The notes under the pieces: model-generated
Database searches by the model: none
Told to the model about the DNA's origin: nothing
The model's input: the letters and a program-made list of their open reading frames with translations, nothing else
DNA from: Folioceros fuciformis
Lineage: Eukaryota
Length of the DNA stretch: 38,383 nt
Direction of reading: 5' to 3'
Assembly (NCBI GenBank): GCA_049999805.1
Contig: JBNGIO010005089.1
Coordinates: forward strand, 1-38,383
Shown here: piece after piece, positions 10,841 to 37,826 of the stretch
Layout: every line of letters starts with the position of its first letter
Position numbering within the stretch: the first letter of the stretch is position 1
Translations under genes and position numbers: made by a program

Positions 10841-10940
10841 NNNNNNNNNNNNNNNNNNNNNNNNNNNNNNNNNNNNNNNNNNNNNNNNNNNNNNNNNNNN
10901 NNNNNNNNNNNNNNNNNNNNNNNNNNNNNNNNNNNNNNNN
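10841..10940. other. Assembly gap (100 N)
   Basis: N run; 'gtggcattagga' appears on both sides. Confidence 0.99.
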
Positions 10941-11143: not shown

Positions 11144-12271
11144 ATGGACAGTAACAAGGATGACGGCAGGAGATGTTTTGAGATTGGGCAAGCTGCGTTA
11201 GAGAGAGGAGATAAGGTTCGTGCCGTGAAATTTTTGACTAAGGCTCAGCGGCTGTTCCCGACTCCTCAAGTCGATGCTCTTCTCAAAATTGTGAACGGAG
11301 AGGATGGGAAGCAGGGATCAGAGGAGACAACTTCAGAAAATGGAGATGTGCAGAGGCCACTGTCTACAGCTAATGACGATGGAGAAAGCAGCGCGTCACA
11401 TGATTCCAGAGCTCACCGTCACAGTAACGGTGTGCATCAGTCTAATGGATCCAGTGCATCAGGCCCCACAGTTGAGCAGGTGGAAGTTGTGCGACGTGTG
11501 AGGAGAACCAAGGATTTCTACGAGATTCTGGGCGTATCGAAGACATGCTCAGAAGAGGAGGTAAGGAAAGCGTATCGGAAACTGTCTTTGAAGGTCCACC
11601 CCGACAAAAATAAAGCACAAGGTGCTGAGGAGGCATTCAAGGCGGTGTCAAAAGCGTTCATGTGCTTGAGTAATGCAGAGCGCAGGGCAAAATATGACCA
11701 GTGTCCAGAGGCGGAAGATGGCACTGAGGCTGCGCGTCAGAATCCATTTATGAGGCGGCGCCATGGAAACCCCATGTACTATGAGGACGTGTTTGATGCC
11801 AACGATATTTTCAACAGCTTTTTCTTCAGCGAGAATGGGGCGTTTCGAAGGGTTCATGTGAGGACCCCAGGTGCTCGTGCTGGGCGGACAGACACGCCTT
11901 CCAATAATCTGTTGGGTCTTCTGCAGTTGCTTCCAATCATTGCCTTGTTTGTTTTCACCTACTTCCCATTTTCTCGACCTGAGTATTCTTTAGAACAAGG
12001 TTCCCCTTACAACGTCCCGCAGGTAACTAGTAACCATGGGATCCAGTACTATGTGAGGTCGCCAACATTTGAGAAGGATTATCCAGTGGGAAGCCCTTCA
12101 AGAAGGTCACTTGAATATCAAGTGGAGAGCGAGTTCAAAGACTATCTTGTGCAGAGGTGCAAGTACGAACTCATGAATGCTCGTAGGTGGCGTGTAACAA
12201 GAGCTCAACAGTTAGCAGACAGTCCTGCTTGTGTAAGGCTGGAGCAGCAGTTGAAAGTACGGGTCTTTTAG
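11144..12271 (+). CDS. DnaJ/Hsp40 membrane co-chaperone of the DNAJB12/14 (plant DnaJ 49-like) type; intronless CDS
   Basis: N-terminal 'MDSNKDDGRRC..A..FLTKAQRLFP', J-domain 'DFYEILGV..RKAYRKLSLKVHPDKNKAQGAEEAFKAV', TM segment 'LLQLLPIIALFVFTYFPF', DUF1977-like tail 'YYVRSPTFEKDYP..LEYQVE..RC..PACVRL'. Confidence 0.95.
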   Translation: MDSNKDDGRRCFEIGQAALERGDKVRAVKFLTKAQRLFPTPQVDALLKIVNGEDGKQGSEETTSENGDVQRPLSTANDDGESSASHDSRAHRHSNGVHQSNGSSASGPTVEQVEVVRRVRRTKDFYEILGVSKTCSEEEVRKAYRKLSLKVHPDKNKAQGAEEAFKAVSKAFMCLSNAERRAKYDQCPEAEDGTEAARQNPFMRRRHGNPMYYEDVFDANDIFNSFFFSENGAFRRVHVRTPGARAGRTDTPSNNLLGLLQLLPIIALFVFTYFPFSRPEYSLEQGSPYNVPQVTSNHGIQYYVRSPTFEKDYPVGSPSRRSLEYQVESEFKDYLVQRCKYELMNARRWRVTRAQQLADSPACVRLEQQLKVRVF

Positions 12272-12322: not shown

Positions 12323-13920
12323 CTAATTACGATGAAGGGCCAGACACATGAAGATGATGCTAACTGCATGTAGAGTTTCCTGCTGGACACGCAGGCACGT
12401 TATGAATTTAACAAGGTCCAGCGGCAATTGCCTCGTATCGTGCTCCTCCCTTTTGCACAGGATGGTCCGCTTGCTAGATTTCGGAAATCTTGAGAGATTC
12501 CTTGGCAAGTTCGGGTGTCTTGCGCACTTCCAACAAGGAAGCATCAGCGTTCTATTGCCTGTCCTGCCTTGTACGTTGTTGTTTCCGCTGCTTCTCCTTA
12601 GTTGTGAGTGGCCGGGGTGCTTCGTCTTTCTCATGTGCCTCAGCTTCGCCGTCCTCCTCCTTGCTGCTATCGCTTTCTTCCGCCTGTTGCTTGACTGTAA
12701 GCATTAGCCTTGGGGATCGTAGGTCGATTTATTTTCTCTTACGGTCAAGTGGCTTGAGTTTGAAAGCACTCTCTCTTGAGGATGAGCACCTGGGCCACAG
12801 TCGGAGCAGGACCAGTCAGGAAGTAATAAGCTTAAGCAAGAGTCAAAGCTGACGTTTGTCCTCGAATGCGGACCCCTCACCAGTATCCTCTGAGGCACCG
12901 GTTACTCGAATTCGAGTTTATCTCCAGGTGCAAACTGGTGATCTATGGAGTATTTCCACCGTCCCCCTCTGAATGCATTCCTCTCACGGAAATATACGAC
13001 GTTCCACGTCCTCCCATCATCATCCTGTAGCGTGATATTAGTGTGTGTGTGTTGGGAAGGTGATGGGCACCTCACTTGTCATATGCTGCACCCGACATTC
13101 AGCGGCATTTTCTTAGTACAGCCCTCGCAGCCATTCAGAGCCGCAACTTTAACACCATCTGACAAGGGACCGGTCTCCGGACACTGGAAGGCGCTTTACA
13201 GGTTCCCATCCAAGAACATGGCACACGAGGCAAGAAGGAGGACGGGAAGAAGGCAGTACACGGGGACTCACCAACCAGAATCTGCGATGGCAACAGCGGT
13301 ATCGATGTGAACAAAAATCTCCGGGGTACAAGGATGTCTGCATCATCGCGATCCCCATCCATGTTGCCGGGCCGCCCGTAGTAGGTTGTTGCCCACACAC
13401 CTACTGCAATATCGGGATTCTGCGTCCCACTGGACCTCCGCTCAGCACAAACTGGGCTGGCAGACCCCCAAAGACCCTGATTCTCTTCTGCACACGCCCT
13501 CGAGAACCGTCATCTCCCAAGCACAATCCACAATCGCAGCACACTTTGGAAACACGAGCAGCTGCGAGGGACGCTCACATCCTGATAGTCACGGGCTGTC
13601 GGCAGCGCGGGTGTGTGGAGTAGGTGTTGGGCAAGCAATCTGGCCTTCACAAGCTGTGCGGGGTTCGAATTTGCGTCCCCTTCTCGCAAGCCACAGCAGA
13701 AGGCGAGAGCAAGCGGGCCTGAGGTATGGTCAACTTTGGCTTCTTATCCTTCAAGCATCCTCGTGCCCGCCGTCTCCAGAGCGAATTCAAGCGGGCAGCC
13801 CCACCAGGCATGGCCAGCAGGGACGCCAACGGACGCCATGCCCCACAATCCTGACCTGCCCCCATCCCCTGCAATTCGCGTTTCTCCTCATCTGGCTTTC
13901 TCAGACTCTCCCAGCATTTT
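12323..13920 (-). pseudogene. Degenerate paralogue of the B3-domain gene at 20091-21993
   Basis: Exon-by-exon remnants: 'ESEKAR/EEKRELQGMG..KDKKPKLTIPQ', 'PALPTARDYQD|gt', 'CVGNN...RFWL|gtgagt', 'SSVRRPV..SDGVKVAA', B3 core 'HLPNTHTNITLQDDDGRTWNVVYFRERNAFRGGRWKYSIDHQFAPGDKLEFE*', and tail 'RNLSRFPKSSK' (vs RNLSNFLKSRK). Multiple frameshifts and stops. Confidence 0.8.
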
Positions 13921-18118: not shown

Positions 18119-18772
18119 TTAAGTGGACTTCAACACACTCGAGACTTCTTCCTCGCACCGTGTGTTACTAATAAGCTTAGGTCTCTTGAGGGCTACCTCC
18201 GAGGAATCATCTGTGTTATCTGGTATCCGTTTCTTGTTGTCCTGGACTTCTTCCAAGACACCGTGCCCCCTGACGATGTGCACCTGTGCCACAAGTCGGA
18301 GCAGGCGACGTCAGCAAGCAAGCAAGGCGAAGGATGAGTCAGAGCAGACTGCCGGCTTGGTGAGCCCGACTCTCACCAGAAACCTCCTGGGACGTACTAG
18401 CTCGAAGGTGACTATATCTCCCACCGCAAGGCGATGGTCTACGGAGTATTTCTTCCATCCTCCGCTGAGCGCATTCCTGCCATGCAAATAAACAGCGGTC
18501 CACGTCCTCCCGTCGTCATCCAGTAATGCGATATCAGAGTCCACAGCCGGAAGGTGATCCGACGTCCACCGCCTATCCAAAAGCTGCAACCAAGATCCGG
18601 CAGCATTCTATCAGCGCTAAACAACGAGTGTTACGCCCTTACACGACGCAAGAACATGTGACAAGGCAGCAGCGCGACTCACCACCATGAATACTCTGAC
18701 ACAGTGCCACTCCGTCATTTCCTTCTGGAAGAACGGCAGTCGCGGGAGCGCAGGATCACGAACCCCGTCCAT
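18119..18772 (-). CDS. Short B3-domain protein (REM/VRN1-like class); 5' end uncertain
   Basis: Exons 18772-18683 (MDGVRDPALPRLPFFQKEMTEWHCVRVFMV), 18583-18377 (69 codons: ..LLDDDGRTWTAVYLHGRNALSGGWKKYSVDHRLAVGDIVTFELV..) and 18283-18119 (VHIVRG..LKST*). All GT-AG, in frame, with the same intron positions as the 20-22 kb paralogue. Confidence 0.8.
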
Positions 18773-18904
18773 GGCGGAGGGCAATGGAGGATTTACGAGC
18801 GAGAGTGAGCCAGGTAGATGCATAAATCGCTGTGCGTGCTTGGCGTGCCTGAACGGATTTGCACCTGTTTATGACGCCGTGGTTGCCATGGACGGGGGTC
18901 TACT

Positions 18905-19250
18905 GAACCCTATGTTCCCTCATATGCACCTCGTATATGGAAGCCGAGAATAGTATACCGCAAAGTGGATAGAAAGCTCAAGCCCTCCCTTCCTAAGTGT
19001 AGGATTGAGGATGAGCTATGCAGGAAGTTGCCATGGACCAGGACTTCTAAACCCAATTTTCCCTTGTGTACACCTCATCTATGGAAGCTGAGAATAGTAT
19101 ACTACTGCAAGGTGGATACAAAGCCCTCCCCTTCCTAAGTGAAAGCTTTGTGAGGTGAGCTATGACAGGAAGTGGATAGAAGGTCAAGCCCTGGCTTTCT
19201 TTCCTTCCTTGTCGGTGAACTATTTAGGAAGTGCATACAAGGTCAAGCAC
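18905..19250. repeat. Imperfect ~143-bp tandem repeat with shorter sub-repeats
   Basis: 'cacctc.t.tatggaagc.gagaatagtatac..gcaa.gtggata.aaagc...cccttcctaagtg' at ~18927 and ~19071; 'gagctatg.caggaagt' and 'aaggtcaagc' recur. Confidence 0.7.
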
Positions 19251-20090
19251 ACAGGGACGGCAGCACACGAGCCAGCTCACCAGCTGAGCATGAGAGATCA
19301 CCGCCAAGATTCTCCTGACTACCCTTCTCCATTAGCCCAAAAGGACCTGACGTTAACTCCAGTGCTCAATCGCAGCGCAATTTGAAAACACAAGCAGGAA
19401 TTTCAAGGAAGGAAAAAGGGATGCACGATCACATCCCGANNNNNNNNNNAGCAGGAATTTCAAGGAAGGAAAAAGGGATGCACGATCACATCCCGAAGGT
19501 TGCAGGATCGCAGCATGCGAGTGTGGAGGACGGTTAGGCGCCGGGCCCAAGCTTCTGCATCTCGCGGGCCATGGCAGAATACCAGATCGAGGCAACGAAC
19601 AGCTTCTTATCCTCAACATCCTCCTGCTCCGTCCCCCTTCTCCGGAGCGCGCTCATGGGGCTGGCCACCACCAGGAAGAACGACGACAGATGCCACGACC
19701 TTCCACCCGCGCAATCCGCTGCTTGCCGCTCCCGAATCCGAATTGGGCAAGGCATGCACGAGGAGAGTGCAGTAATGCTACCGTCCATTGCCGAGGAAAG
19801 AGAGTAAGTGCAAAAATGCAAGTAGAAACTACAAATGCTCCTGTATGGGTTGCCTCGAGTGCACATTGGCTTTACCGAGCGTACGGGTTGTGAAATAAGG
19901 CCGGAATAGTAACTGAAAGGACAAACTTAAAGGAGAATGGAAAGCGTCTCGGGAGATGACGAAACACTGTACGCGTTGTCTTAACTGAAGACACCAGTGA
20001 AGCAGCCCAGCCAGTACTGCCACGTGAAGTTGGTACCAACGTGAATTCGCTTCCTGCCAGAAGTCATGCATAGAATTGTACAAGCTTGGT

Positions 20091-21993
20091 TTATTGGCGA
20101 TTGCCTCCCACTTTGCTCCCTTTCTTGGAAGTGGCGTTGTGCTTTCTAGATTTTAGAAAATTTGAGAGGTTCCTCGTTGCGATGGGCTTGGGTCTTTTGC
20201 GGGCAGGATTAGCCTCACTCACCTTTAGTTGCTCTCCGGCAGCAGCTCCTGCTACTTGTTCTTGGAGGCGGGAGGAAGCCGCCCTCTTCTTATTAGTGCT
20301 TTCCTGAACTGGCACCTTCACTTGCCTCCTATCCTTATTGCTCGCCCATGGCTGTTTCTGCTTCACTTGTTTGCTTACTTTGACAGCTGGTTTCGTCTTC
20401 CTGTCCTGCTTTGGCAATTGTTTCCGCTTGCCTTTCTCCCTTTCCTTGGCAGTACTTCTGACAGTCCTCCGTTCCAGCCTGTTGGGTCGTCTATCCTCTG
20501 ATTCATCCCGAGCTTCCTCTTCTTCCTCCTCCTCCTCCTCCTCCTCCTCGGACTCCTCGTCGTCACTGTCCTTCCTTGCTTTTGCCTGTCTCTTGACTGG
20601 ATGCTTCAACTTGAAGCGCTCATTTCGTTTTCCTGCGTTGTCTCCTGTACTGCTATCCTGGACTGCCTCGTGATCAGCTGCTCTGACAATGTGCATCTGC
20701 TCCACAGTCGTAGCAGGACAGGTTACGAGGCAGGCATACAAGCAAAAACAAAAGACCAAACCGTGTGCCCAACCGCTCACCAGGAACGTCGTCGGCTTCA
20801 CTAATTCGAAGGTGACTACATCTCCAACCTCAAGGTCGTGGTCTTTGGCGTATCCTCCCCATCCCCCGCTGAGTCCATTCTTGTGAAGGAGATACCGAGC
20901 CTCCCACGTCCTCCCGTCCTCATCCTGTAACGTCAAATCCGTGGTCTCGGCCGGCAGGTGCTCAAGACACCACTCCTTCGGCAAACCCTGCAACCAACAG
21001 GCGGCAGCATTTAGTCAGCACAAAAGAGATTCCAGGTGGATTGCCTCCCGCCAGACCCCGACTTACCATCCAAAAACACCCGGAAACGTGAGACGGCATC
21101 ATCTCACGAGACATGAACGGGTGCGCAGGATCCAGGGACGCCTCAACACGCCTCGCAGCCTTCCGTGCCGCGACGCGGACAGCGTCTGAGACCTCTCCAC
21201 GGACAAGTCTCCGGGCATTGGAATGCGCGCTGCAGACTCCCATAGGGAAACAAACAGACGGCGCAAAAATGAGGACGGGAAGAAGGCAGCACGCGAACTC
21301 ACCAACCAGAATCCTGCAGTCACATGCGATCTCAACATTTGCTTCACGGTGAACGGAAAGCTCCCAGACGCAAGGCGATCTGCAGCGTTCCAAGCCCCGT
21401 CCAATGCGGCGTTCGAAGGGCTGGGGGCCGCTGGTCGCACGTTCCTTCCCACACACCTAAGGCATCATCGGAATTCCATGCCCCTCCTCAGCTCACCACA
21501 ACACACGCAAGCCTAACCATAAGGAAACAGTAGCCCACCCACCTTCTGCGAGGTCCCCGAAGATCCACACTCTCCTTCTGCACCAACACACAAGGACCGT
21601 CATCTCCCAACCCCGAGCACATCGACTTTACAGACAAGAGCAACACTGAGAGAGAAAAAGGCACGGCCGCGCACATCCTCATAGTTGCAGGCGGGCAACA
21701 GTGCGACTCTGGAGGAGCGTCGTCTTTCGCCGCTAGGCACTTTGGGCTTGAGAACCTGTCATCAAGCAGAACTCGAATTGGCGTCTCCTTCTTTCTCACA
21801 GGCCACGAACATGAGCAGCAAGAAAGGCGAAGTCTAGTACCAGTACCTGAGGCCTGACAAGCTTGGGCTTCTTAGCCTTCCCAGCCTCCTCCGCGGCCTT
21901 CTCCAGACCGAGTTCCCGCAATTTCCTCTTGTTCTCCTCGATTCTCTTGATCCTGGCCTGCTCGTACTCGTTCAGCGCATTCTTCTGCCCCAT
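20091..21993 (-). CDS. B3-domain DNA-binding protein (REM/VRN1-like, At3g19184/At5g42700-type N-terminus) with two alternative fourth exons
   Basis: Exons 21993-21847 (LNEYEQARIKRIEENKRKLRELGL), 21755-21675 (RRRSSRVA..NYED), 21577-21543, then 21456-21303 OR 21229-21067, then 20987-20781 (GLPKEWC..LQDEDGRTWEARYL..GLSGGWGGYAKDHDLEVGDVVTFEL) and 20696-20091 (acidic tract + basic tail). Exon lengths and phases were checked by hand. Confidence 0.9.
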
Positions 21994-22811
21994 GGCTGCA
22001 CCCTTCTCCTTGCTCCTTCCTCCTCGCCTCGCCTCCCCTCGCCTCTCCTCGGCTCAACCGCCTGCGGGCCCCCTCTTCTCAGGCATTCTGGTTCCTCCCA
22101 CACCACGGAGCCGCGGTCTATGACGCAATTCCACGACCCGGTCCGCCTGCGGCCGGACACTGTCACTCCCTGATCGCTGCTTGCGCAATTCCGCTCCCGC
22201 CCCGGATTCGGCACAGGCACAGAGAGACCCTGTTCGCGCTCACGACCGGTTCTTCCATCTTTCTGCTTTCTTTCCCGAAGCTAGACCGGCCGCAGCCGTG
22301 CCGTCTTTCCCGCGGAAAGAGGTCCATCCAGAAGCCCTACCGTCCCCAAGTTCCCCCCCTTTTTTCAAATCCCTCTGTACTCCAACGGCCACCCGGTTGA
22401 CCGTCTTGTTCAATACTATGTACTGTATGTGGCGTGAATGTTTTAGCCGGTATGTGACCGGCGGGTTGGAAGTTGGAACTCGGGTTAGCATGGAACCAGG
22501 GATGGGTTTGGTGGTGGTGGGCGTGGTGACGTCCCGGCCTTGGGGCTGTGGGGGCCTTGGGCGATGGAGCTGGGAATGGTCTGGAATGCGTCCCTCGCGG
22601 GACAGGCTCGGGTGGGAGCTGCCTGGAAGCTTCCTGCATTTTGGGTGGCAGCGGGTGCAGAGGGCGGTGGAGTGGTCGCTGCTCTGGGGCAGGGTGCGAG
22701 GCCCGCGTCTCAGGATTATGTGATCGGGTTTGTGGTGGCACGAGGGGCTGGCATTCGCTGATTTTGGGGGGATGGGGCTTGCTGCAGGCTGCTCATGGAG
22801 GTTGATATTGT

Positions 22812-25073
22812 TTGCGTGCATGCAGCCAGCTGTGCAAGGAAGGGCAGCTGAAGGAGGCGGTTGAGGCAGTGGAGGGATCGAGGAAGGAGGGAATTCGGGT
22901 TTCCGTGAAGTTGTTTCTTCGGCTTCTGCAGGAATGTATCAAAAGGAAGGATTTGGTCCGGGGGAAGAAAGTGCATGCTCTGATTTGGAAGGATGGGTAT
23001 GGTGGCAACATGTTTTTGCAGAGCAATCTTGTGCGGATGTATGCGGTGTGCGGGAGCATGGGGGATGCTCGTGCCGTTTTTGATGGGATGGCTGTGAGGA
23101 ATGCCTTTTCGTGGACGGCGATTATTTCTGGATATGTTCAGGAGAAGCGGGGTGGAGAGGCTTTGAAGGTGTTTGGGAGGATGAAGCAGGAGGGAGTGCA
23201 GCCGGACAGCTATACGTATGTGAGCTTGATCAGAGCTTGTACCAGTCTGACGGCTTTGGAGGAGGGAAAGAAGATTCATGCTGCTGTTAAGCAGGCGGGG
23301 TTTGAGTCGGATGTGTTTGTGGGGAACGCCTTGGTGGACATGTATGCGAAATGTGGTGCGTTGCAGGAGGCTCGGCGGGTGTTTGATGGATTGCCGGCTC
23401 GGGATGTGGTTTCGTGGACCGCGCTGATTGCGGGGTATGCACAGAACGGGCATGGGGACACAGCTGTCTCTTTGTTTGGGAAGATGCTGGAAGGGGGAGT
23501 GAGCCCGAACGCCTTGACTCTGGTGAGTGTGCTCAAGGGGTGTCACGGTCCGTCTGATGCGAAGCAGGGGCAGCTCATTCATGAATACGTTGGCAAGAGC
23601 AGGTACAAGGCGGATTTGTTTGTTAGAACTGCCCTGGTGGATATGTACGCGAAATGTGGGAAGCTGGTGGAAGCGCGCCGTGTTTTTGATGAGTTGGAAG
23701 AACGAGACTTGGTTTTATGGAATGCCATCATTGGTGGGTATTCTCAGCATGGAGAGGGTGAGGAGGCTCTTCAGTTGTTCCATGCTATGCAGAGAGGAGG
23801 CAGCAAGGTGCAGCCGGATGCGGTTACCTTCGTTGGTGCTCTGAGAGCGTGTGCGAGCCCGCCAAACCTTGCAGAGGGCAGGTTTATTCACAAACTTGCT
23901 GGCAGGAGTGGATATGAGTCCAATGATTTTGTGAGGAGCGCTCTTATTGATATGTATGCCAAAGGTGGGAGCCTGGTTGATGCCCTCGAGGTGTTTGAGA
24001 AGGTGCAGAATGGAGATGTTGTGACGTGGACGGCCATGATTTTCGCGTATGTCCATCATGGCCAGAGCCAGAAGGCTCTCGAGTTGTTCGATCAGCTTCA
24101 ACGGCAGGGCTTGAAGCCGGATAATCTCACGTTTGCCAGTGTTCTCAAAGCTTGTGCCAGTCCAGAACATTTGGAGAGGGTCAAGGAGCTGCAGGCCCTG
24201 ATTAAAGGAGGGCCGTACGAGTCAGACGCGGTTGTGCAGAATACCCTGATTGCCATGTATGCTAAGTGCGGGAGCGTTGATGATGCTGTCCAGGTCTTCG
24301 ACAGAGCCAGCAAAGGAAACGTGGTGACATGGAATGCAATGCTGGCAGGGTATACGGAAGCTGGGCGTAGCGAGGAAGCTCGTGAGCTGTTTGATCGAAT
24401 GGGACGAGAGGGTGTAGAACCAGATATATACACGTATGCTACGCTTCTCAAAGGATGTTCTGGCGAAGCAGGCCTAGAACAGGTGAAGTCTATTCACGCC
24501 AAGATCAAAGAAGGGTCCATATTGCCCGACTTGTTCCTGGAGAACACCCTTGTGACAGTCTATTCTAAGTGTGGCAGCTTAGTCAATGCACGTGACGTGT
24601 TCGACCAGATGCAGAAACGGGATGTAGTCTCTTGGACTGCTATGATGTCAGCATGTGTGGAACATGGGCAGGAAGAGGAGGCCCATGCCTTGTTTCCCAG
24701 GATGCAGGAAGAAGGCGTTGTTCCAAACATCGCCACTTTTCTAAGCGCCCTCAAGTCGTGTTCTACTCCAGCTTCCTTGGAATACGGGAAACAGGTTCAT
24801 GCAGACATCATCAAAAGCGGGTCGGCGTCAAACCTTTACATCGGCAACTCCCTTGTCGACATGTATGCCAGATGTGGGTCGTTGGAGAGTGCTCGACAAG
24901 TGTTTGACAACATGCCTAATCGAGATTCTGTGTCTTGGAGCTCTCTCATCACAAGCTACGTCCAACAAGGCAAGCACGATGAGGCCTTGGCACTCTTCCG
25001 CAAGATGGAGCTGGAAGACTGGCTACCCAACAGCACAGCGCTCATCAAAATCATTAAAGCATGCTCTGGCTAG
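22812..25073 (+). CDS. PLS-class PPR protein without E/DYW extension; true start probably on an upstream exon
   Basis: About 7 P-L-S triplets ('DVVSWTALIAGY', 'TF..VLKAC', 'LVDMYAKCG.L..AR.VFD'). Ends 'IIKACSG*'. The ORF opens on a non-ATG codon just after an in-frame TGA (22803-22805). Confidence 0.9.
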   Translation: MRACSQLCKEGQLKEAVEAVEGSRKEGIRVSVKLFLRLLQECIKRKDLVRGKKVHALIWKDGYGGNMFLQSNLVRMYAVCGSMGDARAVFDGMAVRNAFSWTAIISGYVQEKRGGEALKVFGRMKQEGVQPDSYTYVSLIRACTSLTALEEGKKIHAAVKQAGFESDVFVGNALVDMYAKCGALQEARRVFDGLPARDVVSWTALIAGYAQNGHGDTAVSLFGKMLEGGVSPNALTLVSVLKGCHGPSDAKQGQLIHEYVGKSRYKADLFVRTALVDMYAKCGKLVEARRVFDELEERDLVLWNAIIGGYSQHGEGEEALQLFHAMQRGGSKVQPDAVTFVGALRACASPPNLAEGRFIHKLAGRSGYESNDFVRSALIDMYAKGGSLVDALEVFEKVQNGDVVTWTAMIFAYVHHGQSQKALELFDQLQRQGLKPDNLTFASVLKACASPEHLERVKELQALIKGGPYESDAVVQNTLIAMYAKCGSVDDAVQVFDRASKGNVVTWNAMLAGYTEAGRSEEARELFDRMGREGVEPDIYTYATLLKGCSGEAGLEQVKSIHAKIKEGSILPDLFLENTLVTVYSKCGSLVNARDVFDQMQKRDVVSWTAMMSACVEHGQEEEAHALFPRMQEEGVVPNIATFLSALKSCSTPASLEYGKQVHADIIKSGSASNLYIGNSLVDMYARCGSLESARQVFDNMPNRDSVSWSSLITSYVQQGKHDEALALFRKMELEDWLPNSTALIKIIKACSG

Positions 25074-25731: not shown

Positions 25732-28008
25732 ATGCGCCCTCCTTCCATGGACGAATCCTGGTTACTGGGTTCCAGGAATCTTGTTGTTGGGAAGGGCTAC
25801 CCGCTTCCAACGTACAACATTCCATTGACATCACAGCAGTGGCTGTCGTTGAATGGGTGGCAAAAGAGACATCAGAGCTTGAAGTCTGATTGCAGGTGTT
25901 CTACATCCAACTGCAGCGTTGTGCAGGAAGATTTTGAACTCCGCCGTAGCAGGCGGGGCAGATTATTAACGGCTGACACGGTGAGAAAGCTATGTGAGCT
26001 GGGGCAGGTCGTGCAGGCTGTCGAGGGCCTGGGGCTTCTGGTGCAAACGGGGGACTCCTGTATACCACAGTCTCTATTGTACGCTGTGCTGAAAAAATGT
26101 GGGCTTCACAGGGATTTGTGTCTGGGCCGCCGTGTGCATGCTCTCATTTTGAAAGGAGGATACGAGTCGGATACGTTCTTGTGCAATCACATCCTGCGGA
26201 TGTATGCTGCTCATGGCAGATTGGAGGAAGCCAGGGAGGTTTTCACCCTGACAACTCGACCGGATGCCTTCACGTGGTCCTCAATTATATCTGCCCACGT
26301 TAAACACAACCAGGATAAGGAAGGCATAGAGCTCTATCATCAGATGCGGAGGTCCAGTCTGAAGCCAGACGGGCATGTCTTTGCAGCAGTCCTTCAGGCT
26401 TGTGCAGGGGCAGGAGACTTAAAAAGTGGGCAGCAGGTGCACGCGGATGTGCTGGCTAGTGGAGTCCGGCCCGATATGTTTGTCTGCAATGGTCTGGTAG
26501 ACATGTATGCCAAGTGTGGCAACTTGGACGAGGCTCGAAGAGTATTCGACGGCCTTGCTCGGAAGGATGTGGTCACTTGGACAGCTTTGATTGCAGGATA
26601 TGCCCAGCAGGGCATGGGTCAGGAAGCGCTGCTCCTTCACAGTGTTATGCAACAAGAAGGTGTGGCTGTACAGGACTCTGTGACTTTTGTGTCTCTTCTG
26701 CAGGCTTGTGCAAGTGTGGGTGCCCCTGCTCTGGAGACCGGAAGACAGCTTCATGTACAGATTGGAGAACGAGGGTTTCAGACTGATGTGAAAGTAAGCA
26801 CCAGCCTGGTGAACATGTATGCAAAGTGTGGCAGCTTGGAAGACGCTCAAAGGGTGTTCGACGGGCTTCGTCATAAGAATGTGGCCACGTGGACCGCGCT
26901 TATTGCAGGGCATGCAAAGTGTGGCAGCCTGGATGATGCCGAGAGATTGTTTGACGGGCATGCCCGCAAAGATTTGGTGATGTGGAATGCCATGATTGCA
27001 GCATACTCCCAGCAGGGAATGGGGCAGGAAGCGCTTCGTATATACAGGTCTATGCAAGAAGAAGGCATCTTTGCACCGAATGCTCGGACATTTGTGTGCC
27101 TTCTACAGGCATGTGCAAATGTGGCAGCGTTGGAGCTGGGAAGGGAGCTTCACTCGCACATAAAAGAACAGGGTCTCGAGGCTGATGTGCTTTTAGCCGG
27201 CAGTCTGATAAACATGTATGCAAAGTCTGGGAGCATTGTGGACGCACAGCATGTGTTTGACGCCATGCCCCAAAGAGATGTTGTGGCCTGGAATGCACTG
27301 ATCACAGGCTACAGTCGTCAAGGAGACGACGAAGAGGTCTTCGGCCTGTTTCACAGAATGGGAGAGGAGGGCATACAGCCAACCGGCCTCACCTTCCTTA
27401 GTGTACTCACACTGTGCAGTCATGCAGGGTTAGTAAACAAGGGGCAAGAACTCTTTGATGCTATGAGCAAATACCATGGCATTTCTCCCACCGTCGAGCA
27501 CTACATATGCATGGTGGACCTCTTGGCTCGTGCGGGCCAACTGGACGAGGCCCTTGGTGTGGTAAAGGCGATGCCTGTACCACCCATCGCCGCAGTTTGG
27601 CACGCAATTCTGGGTGCTTGTCGAAAATGGAGCAACGTAGAGGCGGGACGCCATGCGTTTGAAGAAGCGGTGAAGCTAGATGAGAAGGATGAGGCTGCCT
27701 ATGTCTTGATGTCGAACATCTACAATGCTGTCGAGATGTGGGAGCAGGCGGAAGAGCTGCGGTTAAGAAGAACCGCAATTGGGGCGTGGAAGGCCCCAGG
27801 GCAGAGTTGGTGGACAGACCTGAATGGCCAGGTACATACGTTTGTGGTAGGGGATAAAACGCATCCCGAAACCGAGGCTTTGTATGCAATGCTAGATCTG
27901 CTTATTTCCAAAATGGAGACACAAGGAGCTTTCACCAGGCCTAGACTAGATGTCCGAGAGCAATCTTCCTATTGTAGACTTTCATGTCAAGTTTGTCCCG
28001 ATCTGTGA
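25732..28008 (+). CDS. PLS-E1-E2 PPR RNA-editing factor with WW-type PG box and truncated DYW domain
   Basis: PLS triplets, L2 'TFLSVLTLCSHAGLV', S2 'EHYICMVDLLARAG', E1 'VWHAILGACRKW', E2 'AYVLMSNIY', then 'KAPGQSWWTDLNGQVHTFVVGDKTHP'. No HxE or CxxC deaminase core follows. Confidence 0.93.
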   Translation: MRPPSMDESWLLGSRNLVVGKGYPLPTYNIPLTSQQWLSLNGWQKRHQSLKSDCRCSTSNCSVVQEDFELRRSRRGRLLTADTVRKLCELGQVVQAVEGLGLLVQTGDSCIPQSLLYAVLKKCGLHRDLCLGRRVHALILKGGYESDTFLCNHILRMYAAHGRLEEAREVFTLTTRPDAFTWSSIISAHVKHNQDKEGIELYHQMRRSSLKPDGHVFAAVLQACAGAGDLKSGQQVHADVLASGVRPDMFVCNGLVDMYAKCGNLDEARRVFDGLARKDVVTWTALIAGYAQQGMGQEALLLHSVMQQEGVAVQDSVTFVSLLQACASVGAPALETGRQLHVQIGERGFQTDVKVSTSLVNMYAKCGSLEDAQRVFDGLRHKNVATWTALIAGHAKCGSLDDAERLFDGHARKDLVMWNAMIAAYSQQGMGQEALRIYRSMQEEGIFAPNARTFVCLLQACANVAALELGRELHSHIKEQGLEADVLLAGSLINMYAKSGSIVDAQHVFDAMPQRDVVAWNALITGYSRQGDDEEVFGLFHRMGEEGIQPTGLTFLSVLTLCSHAGLVNKGQELFDAMSKYHGISPTVEHYICMVDLLARAGQLDEALGVVKAMPVPPIAAVWHAILGACRKWSNVEAGRHAFEEAVKLDEKDEAAYVLMSNIYNAVEMWEQAEELRLRRTAIGAWKAPGQSWWTDLNGQVHTFVVGDKTHPETEALYAMLDLLISKMETQGAFTRPRLDVREQSSYCRLSCQVCPDL

Positions 28009-30344: not shown

Positions 30345-33300
30345 ATGACCGCCTCCTCACCACTGATTGGGCACAAAACGCAGAGACAGCAATTCTGGAA
30401 ATGTCGCATGCTGGATTCCTCCCGCTTAGAAGGGGTAGCATTATGCCGGGAGGCTGCGGGGTCATCAAACTTGAGATTTGAATCAGCAGAAGGTAGTGTC
30501 GAGAGGGCCATCTCACTGAAGCAAATGGAGCATCGGATCATGCTCGACGATCCTGCCTCTCAAAGGCCTGTAGTAGGCGAAAGAGGGGTGACGGCAGACA
30601 CTGTGAGCAAGCTGTGTCAGAAGGGCTATCTCTCTGAGGCTGTCGAGGCTTTGGGAGTTCTGGTGCAGATGCACTGTTGTGTCTCCAAGGCATTGTTTTA
30701 TGCTGTTTTGAGGAAATGTATGGTGAAGAAGGATCTTGCTCTGGGTCGCCGTGTGCATGCCTTAGCGGTGAGAGAGGGGTACCAGTCGGATACGTTCCTG
30801 GGCAACCATATTCTGCGAATGTACGCTTCTCATGGCAGGTTGGAAGCTGCGATGGATGTGTTCACCATGGTTGTCAACCCCGATGCCTTCACGTGGTCTG
30901 CTATGATCTCTGCGCATGTCAAGCACGGACGCAACAAGCAGGCGATAGAATTGTATCATCGGATGCGCAGGTCAGGTGTTAAGCCAGATGGGCATGTGCT
31001 TGTGGCAGCTCTTCAGGCTTGTGCAAAAGGAGCAGACTTGAGAACAGGGCAGCAGGTGCATGCTTATGTGTTAGCCTGTGGGATTGAGCCTGATTTGTTT
31101 GTATGTAATGGCTTAGTGGACATGTATGCAAAGTGTGGCAGCCTGGAAGAGGCTCAAGGAGTCTTTGACGGGCTCGGTCGAAAGGATGTGGTAACATGGA
31201 ATGCTATGTTAGCAGCGTATTCTCACCAGGGCAGAGGTCAGGAAGCCCTTCACATTTACAGTGCAATGGAAGAAGAGGGCTTGGTTGCACCTGATTCCAA
31301 GACATTCGTGTCGCTCCTGCAGGCGTGTGCAAGCTTGGGCACTCCTGCTCTGGAGAAGGGGAAGGAGTTTCATGCGGACATTAGAGAACGTGGACATGAA
31401 GCTGACATGTTTGTAGCAAGCAGTTTGGTGAACATGTACACAAAGTGTGGCAGCATCGAGGATGCTCAGGATGTGTTTAATGGACTTAGTCAGAAAGGGG
31501 TAGTTGCATGGACTGCCATGATTTCAGGTTACTCCCAGCAAGGCAAGGGCCAGGAAGCTCTTAATCTCCACAGCGCTATGCAAGACGAGGGCATTGCTGT
31601 ACCTGATTCTGTGACATATGTGTGCCTCCTGCAAGCATGTGCAATTGTGGGTGCCCCAGCGTTGGAGAGGGGAAAGCAGCTTCATGTTCAAATCAGACAA
31701 CGAGGTCTACAAGCTGATGTGTTAGCCAACTGTCTGGTGAACATGTATGCAAAGTGTGGCAGCTTGGAAGAGGCTCAGAGAGTGTTTGATGGATTGGATA
31801 AAAAATGTGTGGTAACGTGGACTGCCCTAATAGCAGGGTATTCCCAGCAGGGCATGGGCCAGGAAGCCCTCCGTCTGTACAGTTGTATGCAAGAAGAGAG
31901 CATCATCGTACCTGATCCTGTGACATTTGTGTGCCTCTTGCAGGCATGTGCAAGTGTCGGCCCCCCGGCTTTGGAGGAAGGGAAGCAGTTACATAGACTC
32001 ATTAATGAACGAGGGCATCAAGCTGATGTGTTTGTAAGCAACAGTTTAGTGAACATGTATTCAAAGTGTGGCAGCTTGAAACTTGCGCAGATAGTGTTTG
32101 ATGGACTTCGTCAAAAAGACGTGGTTACGTGGACTGCTCTAATAGCAGGGTATTCTCAGCAGGGTATGGGCCAGGAAGCCCTTTCTATATACAGAGCTAT
32201 GCAGGATGATGGCCTCGCTGCACCTAATTCCGTGACATTTGTGTGCCTCTTGCAGGCATGTGCAAGTGTGGGCACTTCAGCTTTGGAAATGGGAAAGCTG
32301 CTTCATGCACAACTCAGGGAGCAAGGTCATCAGGTGGATGTGTTTGTAGCGAACAGTTTGGTGACCATGTATGCAAAGTGTGGCAGCCTGGAAGACGCTC
32401 AGGGAATGTTCGATGGACTTGATGGAAAAGATGTGGTGACGTGGAACTCCATGATAGCAGGGTATTGCCAGCAGGGCATGGGACAGGAAGCACTTCGTGT
32501 CTACAGTGCTATGCAAGAAGAATGTATGGCTGAACCTGATCCTGTCACATTTCTGTGCGTCCTCCAGGCATGTGCGAAAGTCGGCACACGAGCTTTGGAG
32601 ATGGGGAAGCAGCTTCATGCAACGATACGAGAACGAGGACTTCAGACTGAGGTCTTCATAGCCAACAGTTTGGTAGACATGTATGCAAAGTGTGGCAGCA
32701 TAGAAGACGCACGCCGTGTGTTTGATGGACTCGCTCAGAGAGATGTGGTGACGTGGAATGCCATGATAGCAGGATATTCCCAGCAGGGTCTGGGCCAGGA
32801 AGCCCTTCATCTCTACAGAGCTATGCAAGAAGAAGGAATTGCTGTAGCTGATGGTATCACATTTGCATGCCTGCTGCAGGCATGTGCAAGCATGGGGACC
32901 CTGGGTTTGGAGAAGGGGAAACACATTCACGCTCAGCTTCGAGAGCGATCAACACATGATACACGTGTCGCCAACAGTTTGGTGAACATGTATGCGAAGT
33001 GTGGCACCCTAGATGAAGCTCGCCGCGTGTTTGACGAACTTGATCAAAAGGATGCGGTGACATGGAATGCCATGATAGCAGGATATTTCCAGCAGGGCTT
33101 GGGTGAGGAAGCTCTTCGACTTTACAGTGCCATGCAGGACGAAGGCATTTCTGTCCCTGATGCTGCGACATTCGTATCTCTCCTGCTGGCATGTGCAAAT
33201 GTGGCAGCTCTGCATCTAGGAAGGCTGCTACATTTACAGATCGAAGAACGAGGGCTGGAGACTGACCCGTGTGTGGCAGGCAGTCTGATAAACATGTATG

Positions 33301-33977
33301 GAAAGTCTGGGAGCATGGCTGATGCACAACTGGTCTTTGATGCCTTGCCTAAAAGAGACCTCATTGCCTGGAGTGCTCTTATATCAGGCTATGCCTATCA
33401 AGGAGATACTAATGTGGTCTTTGACTTGATCCAGAGAATGAGAGAGGACGGCATAGAACCAGATGGTATCACCTTCCTGAGTGTTCTGAAAGTATGCAGT
33501 CATTCCGGCCTTGTGGACGAGGGGAGAGAGCACTTCGAGACTATGAGGAAACAGTATGGCATCCCTCCCCTGGTGGAGCACTACACATGCATGGTGAGCC
33601 TCCTGGGCCGCGCGGGCCATCTGGATGAAGCACTAGCTCTGGTGAGGACAATGTCTGTGCTGCCTACCGTTTCGATCTGGCACACTCTTTTGAGCGTTTG
33701 TGGAAAGTGGAGCAACGTGGAGGTGGGACGCCATGCTCTCCACCAAGCATTGAAGCTAGACAACAACGATGCCGCAGCATACGTGTTGATGTCAAACATA
33801 TACAGCGGTGCTCAAATGTGGGAGGAGGCAGAGGAGATGCAAGCAAGGAGGATAGGTATCGGGGCGTGGAAGGAACCTGGTCAGAGCTGGTGGACTGACT
33901 TGGACGGACATGTGCATAGCTTTGTGGTAAGGGATACGAAACATCCAAACTCAACCCACGCTGATCTCAGACTCTAA
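30345..33977 (+). CDS. Long PLS-E1-E2 PPR RNA-editing factor with WW-type PG box; DYW truncated
   Basis: Nine S-type 'MY.K.G/MYASHG' motifs in highly similar ~104-aa triplets, followed by L2/S2/E1/E2 and 'KEPGQSWWTDLDGHVHSFVVRDTKHP', with a stop 10 residues later. Close paralogue of 25732-28008. Start codon uncertain. Confidence 0.93.
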   Translation: MTASSPLIGHKTQRQQFWKCRMLDSSRLEGVALCREAAGSSNLRFESAEGSVERAISLKQMEHRIMLDDPASQRPVVGERGVTADTVSKLCQKGYLSEAVEALGVLVQMHCCVSKALFYAVLRKCMVKKDLALGRRVHALAVREGYQSDTFLGNHILRMYASHGRLEAAMDVFTMVVNPDAFTWSAMISAHVKHGRNKQAIELYHRMRRSGVKPDGHVLVAALQACAKGADLRTGQQVHAYVLACGIEPDLFVCNGLVDMYAKCGSLEEAQGVFDGLGRKDVVTWNAMLAAYSHQGRGQEALHIYSAMEEEGLVAPDSKTFVSLLQACASLGTPALEKGKEFHADIRERGHEADMFVASSLVNMYTKCGSIEDAQDVFNGLSQKGVVAWTAMISGYSQQGKGQEALNLHSAMQDEGIAVPDSVTYVCLLQACAIVGAPALERGKQLHVQIRQRGLQADVLANCLVNMYAKCGSLEEAQRVFDGLDKKCVVTWTALIAGYSQQGMGQEALRLYSCMQEESIIVPDPVTFVCLLQACASVGPPALEEGKQLHRLINERGHQADVFVSNSLVNMYSKCGSLKLAQIVFDGLRQKDVVTWTALIAGYSQQGMGQEALSIYRAMQDDGLAAPNSVTFVCLLQACASVGTSALEMGKLLHAQLREQGHQVDVFVANSLVTMYAKCGSLEDAQGMFDGLDGKDVVTWNSMIAGYCQQGMGQEALRVYSAMQEECMAEPDPVTFLCVLQACAKVGTRALEMGKQLHATIRERGLQTEVFIANSLVDMYAKCGSIEDARRVFDGLAQRDVVTWNAMIAGYSQQGLGQEALHLYRAMQEEGIAVADGITFACLLQACASMGTLGLEKGKHIHAQLRERSTHDTRVANSLVNMYAKCGTLDEARRVFDELDQKDAVTWNAMIAGYFQQGLGEEALRLYSAMQDEGISVPDAATFVSLLLACANVAALHLGRLLHLQIEERGLETDPCVAGSLINMYGKSGSMADAQLVFDALPKRDLIAWSALISGYAYQGDTNVVFDLIQRMREDGIEPDGITFLSVLKVCSHSGLVDEGREHFETMRKQYGIPPLVEHYTCMVSLLGRAGHLDEALALVRTMSVLPTVSIWHTLLSVCGKWSNVEVGRHALHQALKLDNNDAAAYVLMSNIYSGAQMWEEAEEMQARRIGIGAWKEPGQSWWTDLDGHVHSFVVRDTKHPNSTHADLRL

Positions 33978-37070: not shown

Positions 37071-37826
37071 TCTCTGAGCTTCTTGATCTTCGGTAGTCCT
37101 TGTTGGACTCCTTGTAGTCTTCGCCTTCTTTTCTATTTCCTTGGTATAGGTACTCCTTCTCTAGTTCAAACGTACATCATAAGTGTTCAAACATACATAA
37201 GTGTACTCGGTTTTCAAACCTCTTATACGCTGTACTATCTTGTGTCCATGATGGTTCTTCCATCCTTAGTGGACATAAATAAAATTGTTGTTGTTGTTGT
37301 TGCTACTCCTTTCTATCCCACCTAATGATTGGTGGAAACAGCATTTGCCTTTCAACAACACTTCTCTAGGTCAAGATCAATCTAGGCTTTTCTTTTCCAT
37401 AGGCGTTCTCAATGGTGCACACAAGTTTGAGAATGTCATATACGCACCATAAATAGTGTTCATGGCATCGTGAGCAATCCGTGAACATAAGGATACGGGA
37501 ACACAATATAGATAAGGGAAGACGGTGGGATGCATCCCAAATGCCGGTGCATCCCGGTGGTCAGAGCAACCTAGTATGAGTGGTGGGGCCCACGTCTGTG
37601 CACCAGTAATACGATAATATATGTACATCGCTCGACGAGTTTTAGGATCCGGCGTCGGGAATCGCACATCTGTTCTATCGGCCGTTCTCGGCAGGATCCG
37701 CTAGGCAAGTGGTAGAGGGAAACGTGNNNNNNNNNNNNNNNNNNNNNNNNNNNNNNNNNNNNNNNNNNNNNNNNNNNNNNNNNNNNNNNNNNNNNNNNNN
37801 NNNNNNNNNNNNNNNNNNNNNNNNNN

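Follow-up and report, generated by a model that had tools for sequence, protein, structure and literature searches.

A tandem pair of homologous exons at the start of a B3 DNA-binding domain in Folioceros fuciformis as candidate mutually exclusive exons

Gene 1, on the minus strand of Folioceros fuciformis contig JBNGIO010005089.1, carries two neighboring exons, A and B, that appear to be alternative versions of the segment leading into a B3 DNA-binding domain. The window referred to throughout is the whole stretch of DNA that was analyzed, 38,383 nt in length. Judged from sequence, A and B have the formal properties of homologous mutually exclusive exons (MXEs), being neighbors in the same frame, with a length difference of no more than 20 residues and with similarity to each other. 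Exon A is found spliced into a transcript, and the chances are about even (a probability of roughly 0.5) that exon B is still in use as a conditional alternative to it, with inclusion of either one excluding the other.

Organization of gene 1 and its paired exons

All exon borders of gene 1 are AG/GT, and the gene is organized as listed below, with a slash marking a junction or border and X1 denoting the transcript run described later.

21847..21993, minus strand: exon 1 (e1), with the ATG at 21993; the donor junction is confirmed in the X1 contig.
21675..21755, minus strand: exon 2 (e2), 81 nt; the X1 contig contains both junctions.
21543..21577, minus strand: exon 3 (e3), 35 nt, ending in phase 2; X1 junctions 21577/21675 and 21456/21543.
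21303..21456, minus strand: exon A, 154 nt (3n+1), coding for the pre-B3 helix, strand 1 and the N-arm; X1 contig and profile.
21230..21302, minus strand: spacer intron from A to B, 73 nt; about 45 nt at its start are pyrimidine-rich and kept in paralogs 2 and 3.
21067..21229, minus strand: exon B, 163 nt (3n+1), an intact second copy of the segment in exon A; profile match, skipped by the X1 contig.
20988..21066, minus strand: intron from B to the core exon, 79 nt; homology to the gene 2 intron (3' end) over the final ~40 nt.
20781..20987, minus strand: B3 core exon, 69 aa, starting in phase 0; Pfam B3 model positions 18-91, junctions in the X1 contig.
20091..20696, minus strand: coding part of the last exon, with the stop at 20091-20093; junction 20696/20781 in the X1 contig.

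Gene 1 encodes a B3 transcription factor of a land plant; the window is assigned to land plants by its B3 domain together with the three PLS-type pentatricopeptide-repeat genes nearby. The core exon of gene 1 matches Pfam PF02362 (B3) with 54.2 bits, against a cut-off of 30.1, over model positions 18-91 of 101, and because it starts at position 18, exon A or B would provide positions 1-17 (strand 1 and the N-arm) together with a family-specific stretch in front of them. The original prediction had likewise assigned the swapped segment to strand 1 and the N-arm, and this assignment agrees with the alignment of a homolog (P0034) to the VRN1 B3 chain 4i1k_A (residues 24-137, E 1.8e-5), which includes the segment before the core. 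Exons A and B, searched alone, are both too short and give no Pfam B3 match; their sole weak Pfam match, to an unrelated family (E 0.098), was rejected. The core exon was also searched against 1.84 billion representatives, which gave 1299 matches at E<=0.001, and the best 150 were used; among these 150, the closest single-domain homologs are 54-57% identical to the core exon. Word-index protein searches with the core exon and with exon B (longer proteins) were both blank, which is uninformative, as the core exon, common to the family, had no match there either. Exon 1 encodes an N-terminal YEQARIKRIEEN..LGL motif (YE..R..R..EN..LGL) that is also present in 16 of the 150 best-listed homologs (of 1299), and the combination of this motif with a single B3 domain about 150 residues in places gene 1 in a subfamily that we take to be the one named, for example, At3g19184-like. 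The last exon codes for a basic and acidic low-complexity tail.

Exons A and B are adjacent, both run from phase 2 to phase 0, and both are bounded by canonical splice sites, with the acceptor ..gccttag/G and donor TTG/gtgagt for exon A and the acceptor ..gtctgcag/C and donor ATG/gtaagt for exon B. The exon B donor matches the consensus and is the best within gene 1, and its acceptor is normal. The coordinates, lengths, phases and AG/GT borders originally proposed for exon 3, exon A, exon B and the core exon were all reproduced, as was the claim that only single inclusion preserves the frame. In conceptual translation, exon A alone gives a 409-aa open reading frame (ORF) and exon B alone gives a 412-aa ORF. 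Double inclusion meets a TGA inside B, with the stop at codon 167 and three junctions upstream of the end, skipping of both exons gives an early stop at codon 105, and retention of the 73-nt spacer also leads to a stop. As A and B are each 3n+1 in length, productive transcripts would carry exactly one copy.

The open frame of exon B is, by itself, weak evidence, with a chance expectation of about 0.2, and it is not evidence of use. Open frames of 54 codons are common by chance, occurring in 3082 of 15012 windows over the six frames of the whole stretch, and exon B remains open in 1048 of 5000 shuffles. The motif that the two exons had been said to share is present in both, with the spacing P-F-x4-M-x2-S-H-V-x2-[GC]-F-W according to the codon table, rather than with x3 between the F and the M as first written.

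Origin and conservation of the exon pair

Exons A and B are genuine and old homologous tandem duplicates. A BLASTP comparison of the two aligns their final 18 residues (E 3e-6), and further support comes from a profile of 45 columns, built from 41 segments that end in F-W-L directly before the core and were cut from the best 150 of the 1299 homologs, all of them proteins of other plants. When the whole window was translated in six frames and searched with this profile, it matched exon B over columns 3-45 (48.4 bits, E 5.7e-14) and exon A over columns 11-45 (34.6 bits, E 1.2e-9) and nothing besides, the next best match having an E of 0.46. At the nucleotide level, blastn of A against B yields no HSP at settings that give nine HSPs between gene 1 and gene 3 (down to E 2e-19), and among the residues identical in A and B, four of the six degenerate codons differ; the duplication is therefore old. 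Both exons also have F29, a residue that is rare in the family (2 of 53 segments), and are thus sister copies. The homology of the two exons, as first proposed, is thus borne out by the BLASTP match, by the profile matches on both and by the shared F29.

Compared with 53 family segments, exon B retains P28, M34, S37, H38, V39, F43 and W44, and has R in place of K32 and M in place of L45, each of which is found in 2 of the 53. In the B3 part, exon A is ordinary (mean identity to the family 58%, rank 18 of 55) and exon B is the second most divergent of the 55 segments (mean identity 42%), while in the helix part B is slightly closer to the family than A (mean BLOSUM 17.4 versus 7.6). The retention of invariant residues after an old duplication argues that each copy was long under purifying selection, through most of the time since the two arose. 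Selection on both copies had also been proposed originally, and this is favored by the invariant residues kept despite the lack of detectable DNA similarity, but it gains little from the open frames as such. The further suggestion, that the two exons confer different DNA-binding surfaces, is modestly backed. The N-arm residues are T-A-G in A and S-G-C in B, and strand 1 differs by a K-to-R change from A to B, but both N-arms are within the normal range of the family and the bigger differences between A and B sit in the helix preceding the B3 fold.

The exon pair can be compared with two further B3 genes, and the three paralogs lie on the same strand within 9 kb. The segments of gene 2 and gene 3 are as follows.

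18823-18683, minus strand: gene 2, A'-type exon, by homology; the junction from A' to the core, 18583/18683, is in an X1 contig.
18682-18584, minus strand: gene 2, first intron, 99 nt; X1 contig junction.
18583-18377, minus strand: gene 2, core exon, by homology.
18283-18119, minus strand: gene 2, last exon; the second intron is deduced from homology and GT/AG only.
13487-13461, minus strand: gene 3, e3'', by homology to gene 1.
13400-13272, minus strand: gene 3, A'', by homology to gene 1.
13271-13196, minus strand: gene 3, spacer'', by homology to gene 1.
13195-13124, minus strand: gene 3, B'' remnant (the first ~70 nt, with the 3' half deleted), by homology to gene 1.
13085-12881, minus strand: gene 3, core'' with an in-frame stop, by homology to gene 1.

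Gene 3 (about 13800-12400, minus strand) is collinear with gene 1 over the whole span between e1 and the last exon, with 77% identity over 116 nt that span the end of A, the spacer and the start of B, and with 74% identity between the two spacers. Several gaps shift its frame, a deletion of 126 nt has taken out the 3' half of B along with part of the intron, and its core contains the in-frame stop; it is a decayed full-length pseudogene. Because gene 3 has the A-spacer-B arrangement, the exon duplication predates the split of genes 1 and 3. No profile match is listed for its A-type segment at E<=10. Differences between B and B'' over the ~70 nt that can be compared (an indel-broken stretch that codes for a poorly conserved linker) are, as judged by eye, mostly non-synonymous, though the stretch is too short for a count.

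Gene 2 (18119..18823, minus strand) is without exons 1-3 and without exon B, and its start codon is inside the A-type exon; the conceptual product is 170 aa and consists of the B3 domain only. It is transcribed and spliced at 18583/18683. Its A' exon matches exon A (HSP E 6e-4) and contains one B-like 15-mer (14/15), and its intron resembles the start of the gene 1 spacer at the 5' end and the end of the B-to-core intron at the 3' end. In the A' exon S37, V39 and W44 are gone and the profile match is marginal (E 0.98), and the lost profile match in genes 2 and 3 shows what relaxed evolution does to this segment. With three sequences and no outgroup, gene 2 may either have lost B or have split off ahead of the exon duplication. 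In a three-sequence alignment of the core exons, which gives branch lengths only, without an outgroup, gene 1 has 49 unique changes, gene 2 has 33 and gene 3 has 55; the B3 core of gene 1 thus seems to have evolved quickly, the unique changes of the intact copy being near those of the pseudogene and above those of gene 2. The X1 contigs extend more than 1 kb upstream of gene 2 (18683-19800) into a leader with no long ORF, which holds repeated ~60-nt units (e.g., 'cttaggaagg..gagggctt').

A metagenome scan with the core exon gave 12 plant loci with 46-51% identity, several of them near-identical to one another. All 12 have a single N-terminal exon with its border after F-W-L/gt in phase 0, and the duplication is therefore specific to this lineage and not a family-wide feature.

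Transcripts, the spacer and the use of exon B

Run X1 is a single sample in the form of contigs, in which 0.59 of the sampled words are present; that it derives from RNA is a guess, and contigs drop rare variants. Its contigs were aligned to positions 18500-22500. A contig of 1021 nt, at a depth of 23.7, runs through e1, e2, e3, A, the core and the last exon with borders exactly as predicted, and it is treated as spliced RNA because six introns are missing from it at GT-AG borders. The six introns of the A isoform are thereby confirmed, exon A is in use and the A isoform is real. The joint from A to the core in this contig, 20986>21302 (cut +1), skips 315 nt, which correspond to the spacer, exon B and the following intron. 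No B-containing transcript was seen among the X1 contigs of this one sample, and neither was an A+B transcript, a class that, if short-lived, would not show in steady-state contigs. Two other runs of the same study (X2 and X3), from other organisms, gave no alignment to the locus at 80% likeness. Of the four junctions on which the original prediction had hinged, 21543>21456 and 21303>20987 are present in the X1 contigs and 21543>21229 and 21067>20987 were not seen in this sample. The idea of one gene making two B3 proteins is accordingly upheld for the A isoform, but the contig runs from A directly to the core and use of B was not seen. Separately, the X1 contigs are broken, with loose ends, at two repeats of gene 1, one GAG/GAA-rich (poly-Glu) and located in the last exon (20510-20558), the other of GAGGCGAGG type and located in the 5' leader (22015-22055), and the transcript ends are therefore uncertain.

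The spacer between A and B is 73 nt, as compared with 79-97 nt for the other introns of gene 1, and because it is close to these in size, nothing steric forbids the use of B and exclusivity cannot be steric. The intron that follows the A-type exon begins with a pyrimidine-rich stretch (gtgagt..cgcg.tgctgcctt..) that has been conserved across the three paralogs (21258-21302, 13227-13271 and 18640-18682), to a higher degree than most exon sequence. It is, speculatively, a candidate element for repressing B. A 13-mer near the 3' end of the spacer repeats one in the intron between e3 and A (21517-21529; blastn E 0.17). Folding of the pre-mRNA segment 20960-21580 gave no stability beyond that of shuffles (z +0.49, with 15 of 20 shuffles folding as well), and neither this fold nor a repeat search revealed a docking/selector or competing RNA structure. 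Inverted repeats of 17 nt (82%), 12 nt (83%) and 9 nt (100%) are short and mostly exonic and were judged to be due to chance.

These features can be joined in a scheme in which the exon for the pre-B3 helix, strand 1 and N-arm was duplicated in tandem long ago, before the duplication that gave rise to pseudogene 3, with both copies remaining translatable. Inclusion of both exons, of neither, or of the spacer would end the frame early, far ahead of the last junction, so that NMD is expected, and exclusivity would then rest on reading frame together with NMD. Exon A, seen in the transcript, is the default and exon B would be conditional, and the B isoform would differ from the A isoform in the pre-B3 helix, in strand 1 (K to R) and in the N-arm (T-A-G to S-G-C). 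That gene 1 makes two isoforms by such frame-enforced exclusive use of A and B, swapping the helix, strand 1 and the DNA-contacting N-arm, with the beginning of the spacer acting as a switch that keeps B repressed by default, is a tentative proposal that falls somewhat short of even odds.

Its most serious competitor, somewhat less probable again, is that exon B is a relic, once an alternative or the original exon, and is now always skipped and drifting, with no stop, indel or splice-site loss as yet. This reading draws on the same observations that count against use of B in general: the sole X1 contig joins A to the core and skips B, B is absent from gene 2, which is transcribed, and half deleted in gene 3, and the B3 part of exon B ranks second lowest of the 55 segments, with two near-invariant residues replaced (K32R and L45M), equally readable as early decay. 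A frame of this length would also be open by chance at about 0.2, and internal MXE candidates predicted by Kassiopeia in Arabidopsis are not among the annotated exclusive exons, with sequence criteria leaving use untested (PMC3923563). However, the duplication is much older than the split of genes 1 and 3, and exon B still matches the profile at E 5.7e-14, whereas the relaxed copies in genes 2 and 3 have lost their match; any disuse must thus be recent in comparison with how old the pair is. Exon B also has intact splice sites at both ends, its donor being the best in gene 1, and the changes at the two conserved positions are conservative and present in other members of the family.

A role for exon B mainly as a poison exon, in which double inclusion and the resulting TGA would lead to NMD and tune the level of gene 1 without a second protein, is improbable. 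The position of the A+B stop, inside B and three junctions upstream of the end, is as such a role would have it, as are the strong splice sites of B and the well-conserved spacer start between paralogs, and short-lived A+B transcripts would be invisible in steady-state contigs. Conservation at the protein level is not needed by a poison exon, however, yet B keeps its invariant residues in the single-inclusion frame and not in the frame that follows A, and the X1 contigs contain no A+B transcript. Finally, it is very improbable that A and B came together by unequal recombination between tandem paralogs, with their divergence reflecting paralog age and B perhaps a recent, never-used passenger, as three same-strand B3 paralogs within 9 kb and the mixture of A-like stretches (HSP E 6e-4) with a B-like 15-mer (14/15) in the gene 2 exon might suggest, since gene 3 already has the A-spacer-B arrangement with a homologous spacer, so that the arrangement is not recent, the rare F29 is common to A and B, and the 13-mer at the spacer 3' end repeats the intron between e3 and A as tandem duplication predicts (with a chance expectation near 0.1-0.2).

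Relation to known systems and neighboring features

In animals, homologous exons that are spliced in a mutually exclusive manner are well documented. MXE clusters are said to originate via tandem exon duplication, a model reportedly set out by Kondrashov and Koonin in 2001 and by Letunic et al. in 2002. Exons A and B resemble such clusters in being neighboring, homologous, of the same phase and within 3 residues of each other in length, with canonical sites and a frame that is open on single inclusion; they differ in that only A has been seen in a transcript, that no docking/selector RNA structure was found, and that exclusivity would come from frame and NMD rather than from steric constraint. 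The solved structure closest to the family is that of the VRN1 B3 domain (PDB 4i1k), on which, by the sequence match via homolog P0034, the A and B exons account for the N-terminal portion as far as the beginning of the core; unlike gene 1, which has one B3 domain, VRN1 has two.

The WebScipio/Kassiopeia criteria for MXEs are neighboring exons in the same frame with a length difference of <=20 residues and similarity; the same text describes 99 candidate exons predicted in Arabidopsis and calls plant reports of mutually exclusive splicing rare (PMC3923563). The closest plant example found is FLM/MAF1 (AT1G77080) of Arabidopsis, in which a mutually exclusive pair switches an interaction motif of the I-domain, and the 3' exon of the pair is a recently arisen cryptic exon with remnants only in MAF2 and MAF3 (PMC3266260). 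FLM is like gene 1 in being a plant transcription factor with adjacent alternative exons for a short functional segment, the second of them lineage-restricted, and is unlike it in that the FLM pair lies in the I-domain, whereas the gene 1 pair codes for the beginning of the DNA-binding domain and consists of old homologous duplicates of which only A has been seen in use (PMC3266260). Splice variants of ABI3 and FUS3 listed in a review truncate or remove the B3 domain by way of a cryptic intron or an alternative 3' site with a premature stop (PMC10060653); splicing alters the B3 domain in these genes as it may in gene 1, but without a swap of homologous pieces. A literature search over a limited collection found no report of homologous exons that swap part of a B3 domain.

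Were exon B in use, gene 1 would by itself specify two forms of a plant-specific DNA-binding domain, which would allow a direct test of how the N-terminal helix, strand 1 and N-arm bear on the choice of targets. Should exon B never be used, the pair would be a common remnant of exon duplication and a reminder that use cannot be concluded from intact frames and splice sites. The exon pair is intact in gene 1 and decayed in gene 3, and gene 2, like the distant plants, has one exon only; this natural series could serve to date the duplication and to measure constraint.

The window also contains several other features. There are 100-N gaps at 10841-10940 and 37727-37826, and a 10-N gap at 19440-19449 that has the same ~47-nt sequence (tcgggatgtgatcgtgcatccc..cctgct) on both flanks, a repeat that looks like a duplication artifact of gap closing during assembly. 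An ORF on the plus strand (11144-12271), between a 100-N gap and pseudogene 3, codes for a protein with a DnaJ domain and DUF1977. Three intron-less pentatricopeptide-repeat (PPR) genes are arranged in a row on the plus strand (22812-25073, 25732-28008 and 30345-33977), and are of the PLS class and RNA-editing type, the second with E and E+ motifs and the third with an E motif; the first of them starts about 0.8 kb from the gene 1 ATG, on the opposite strand.
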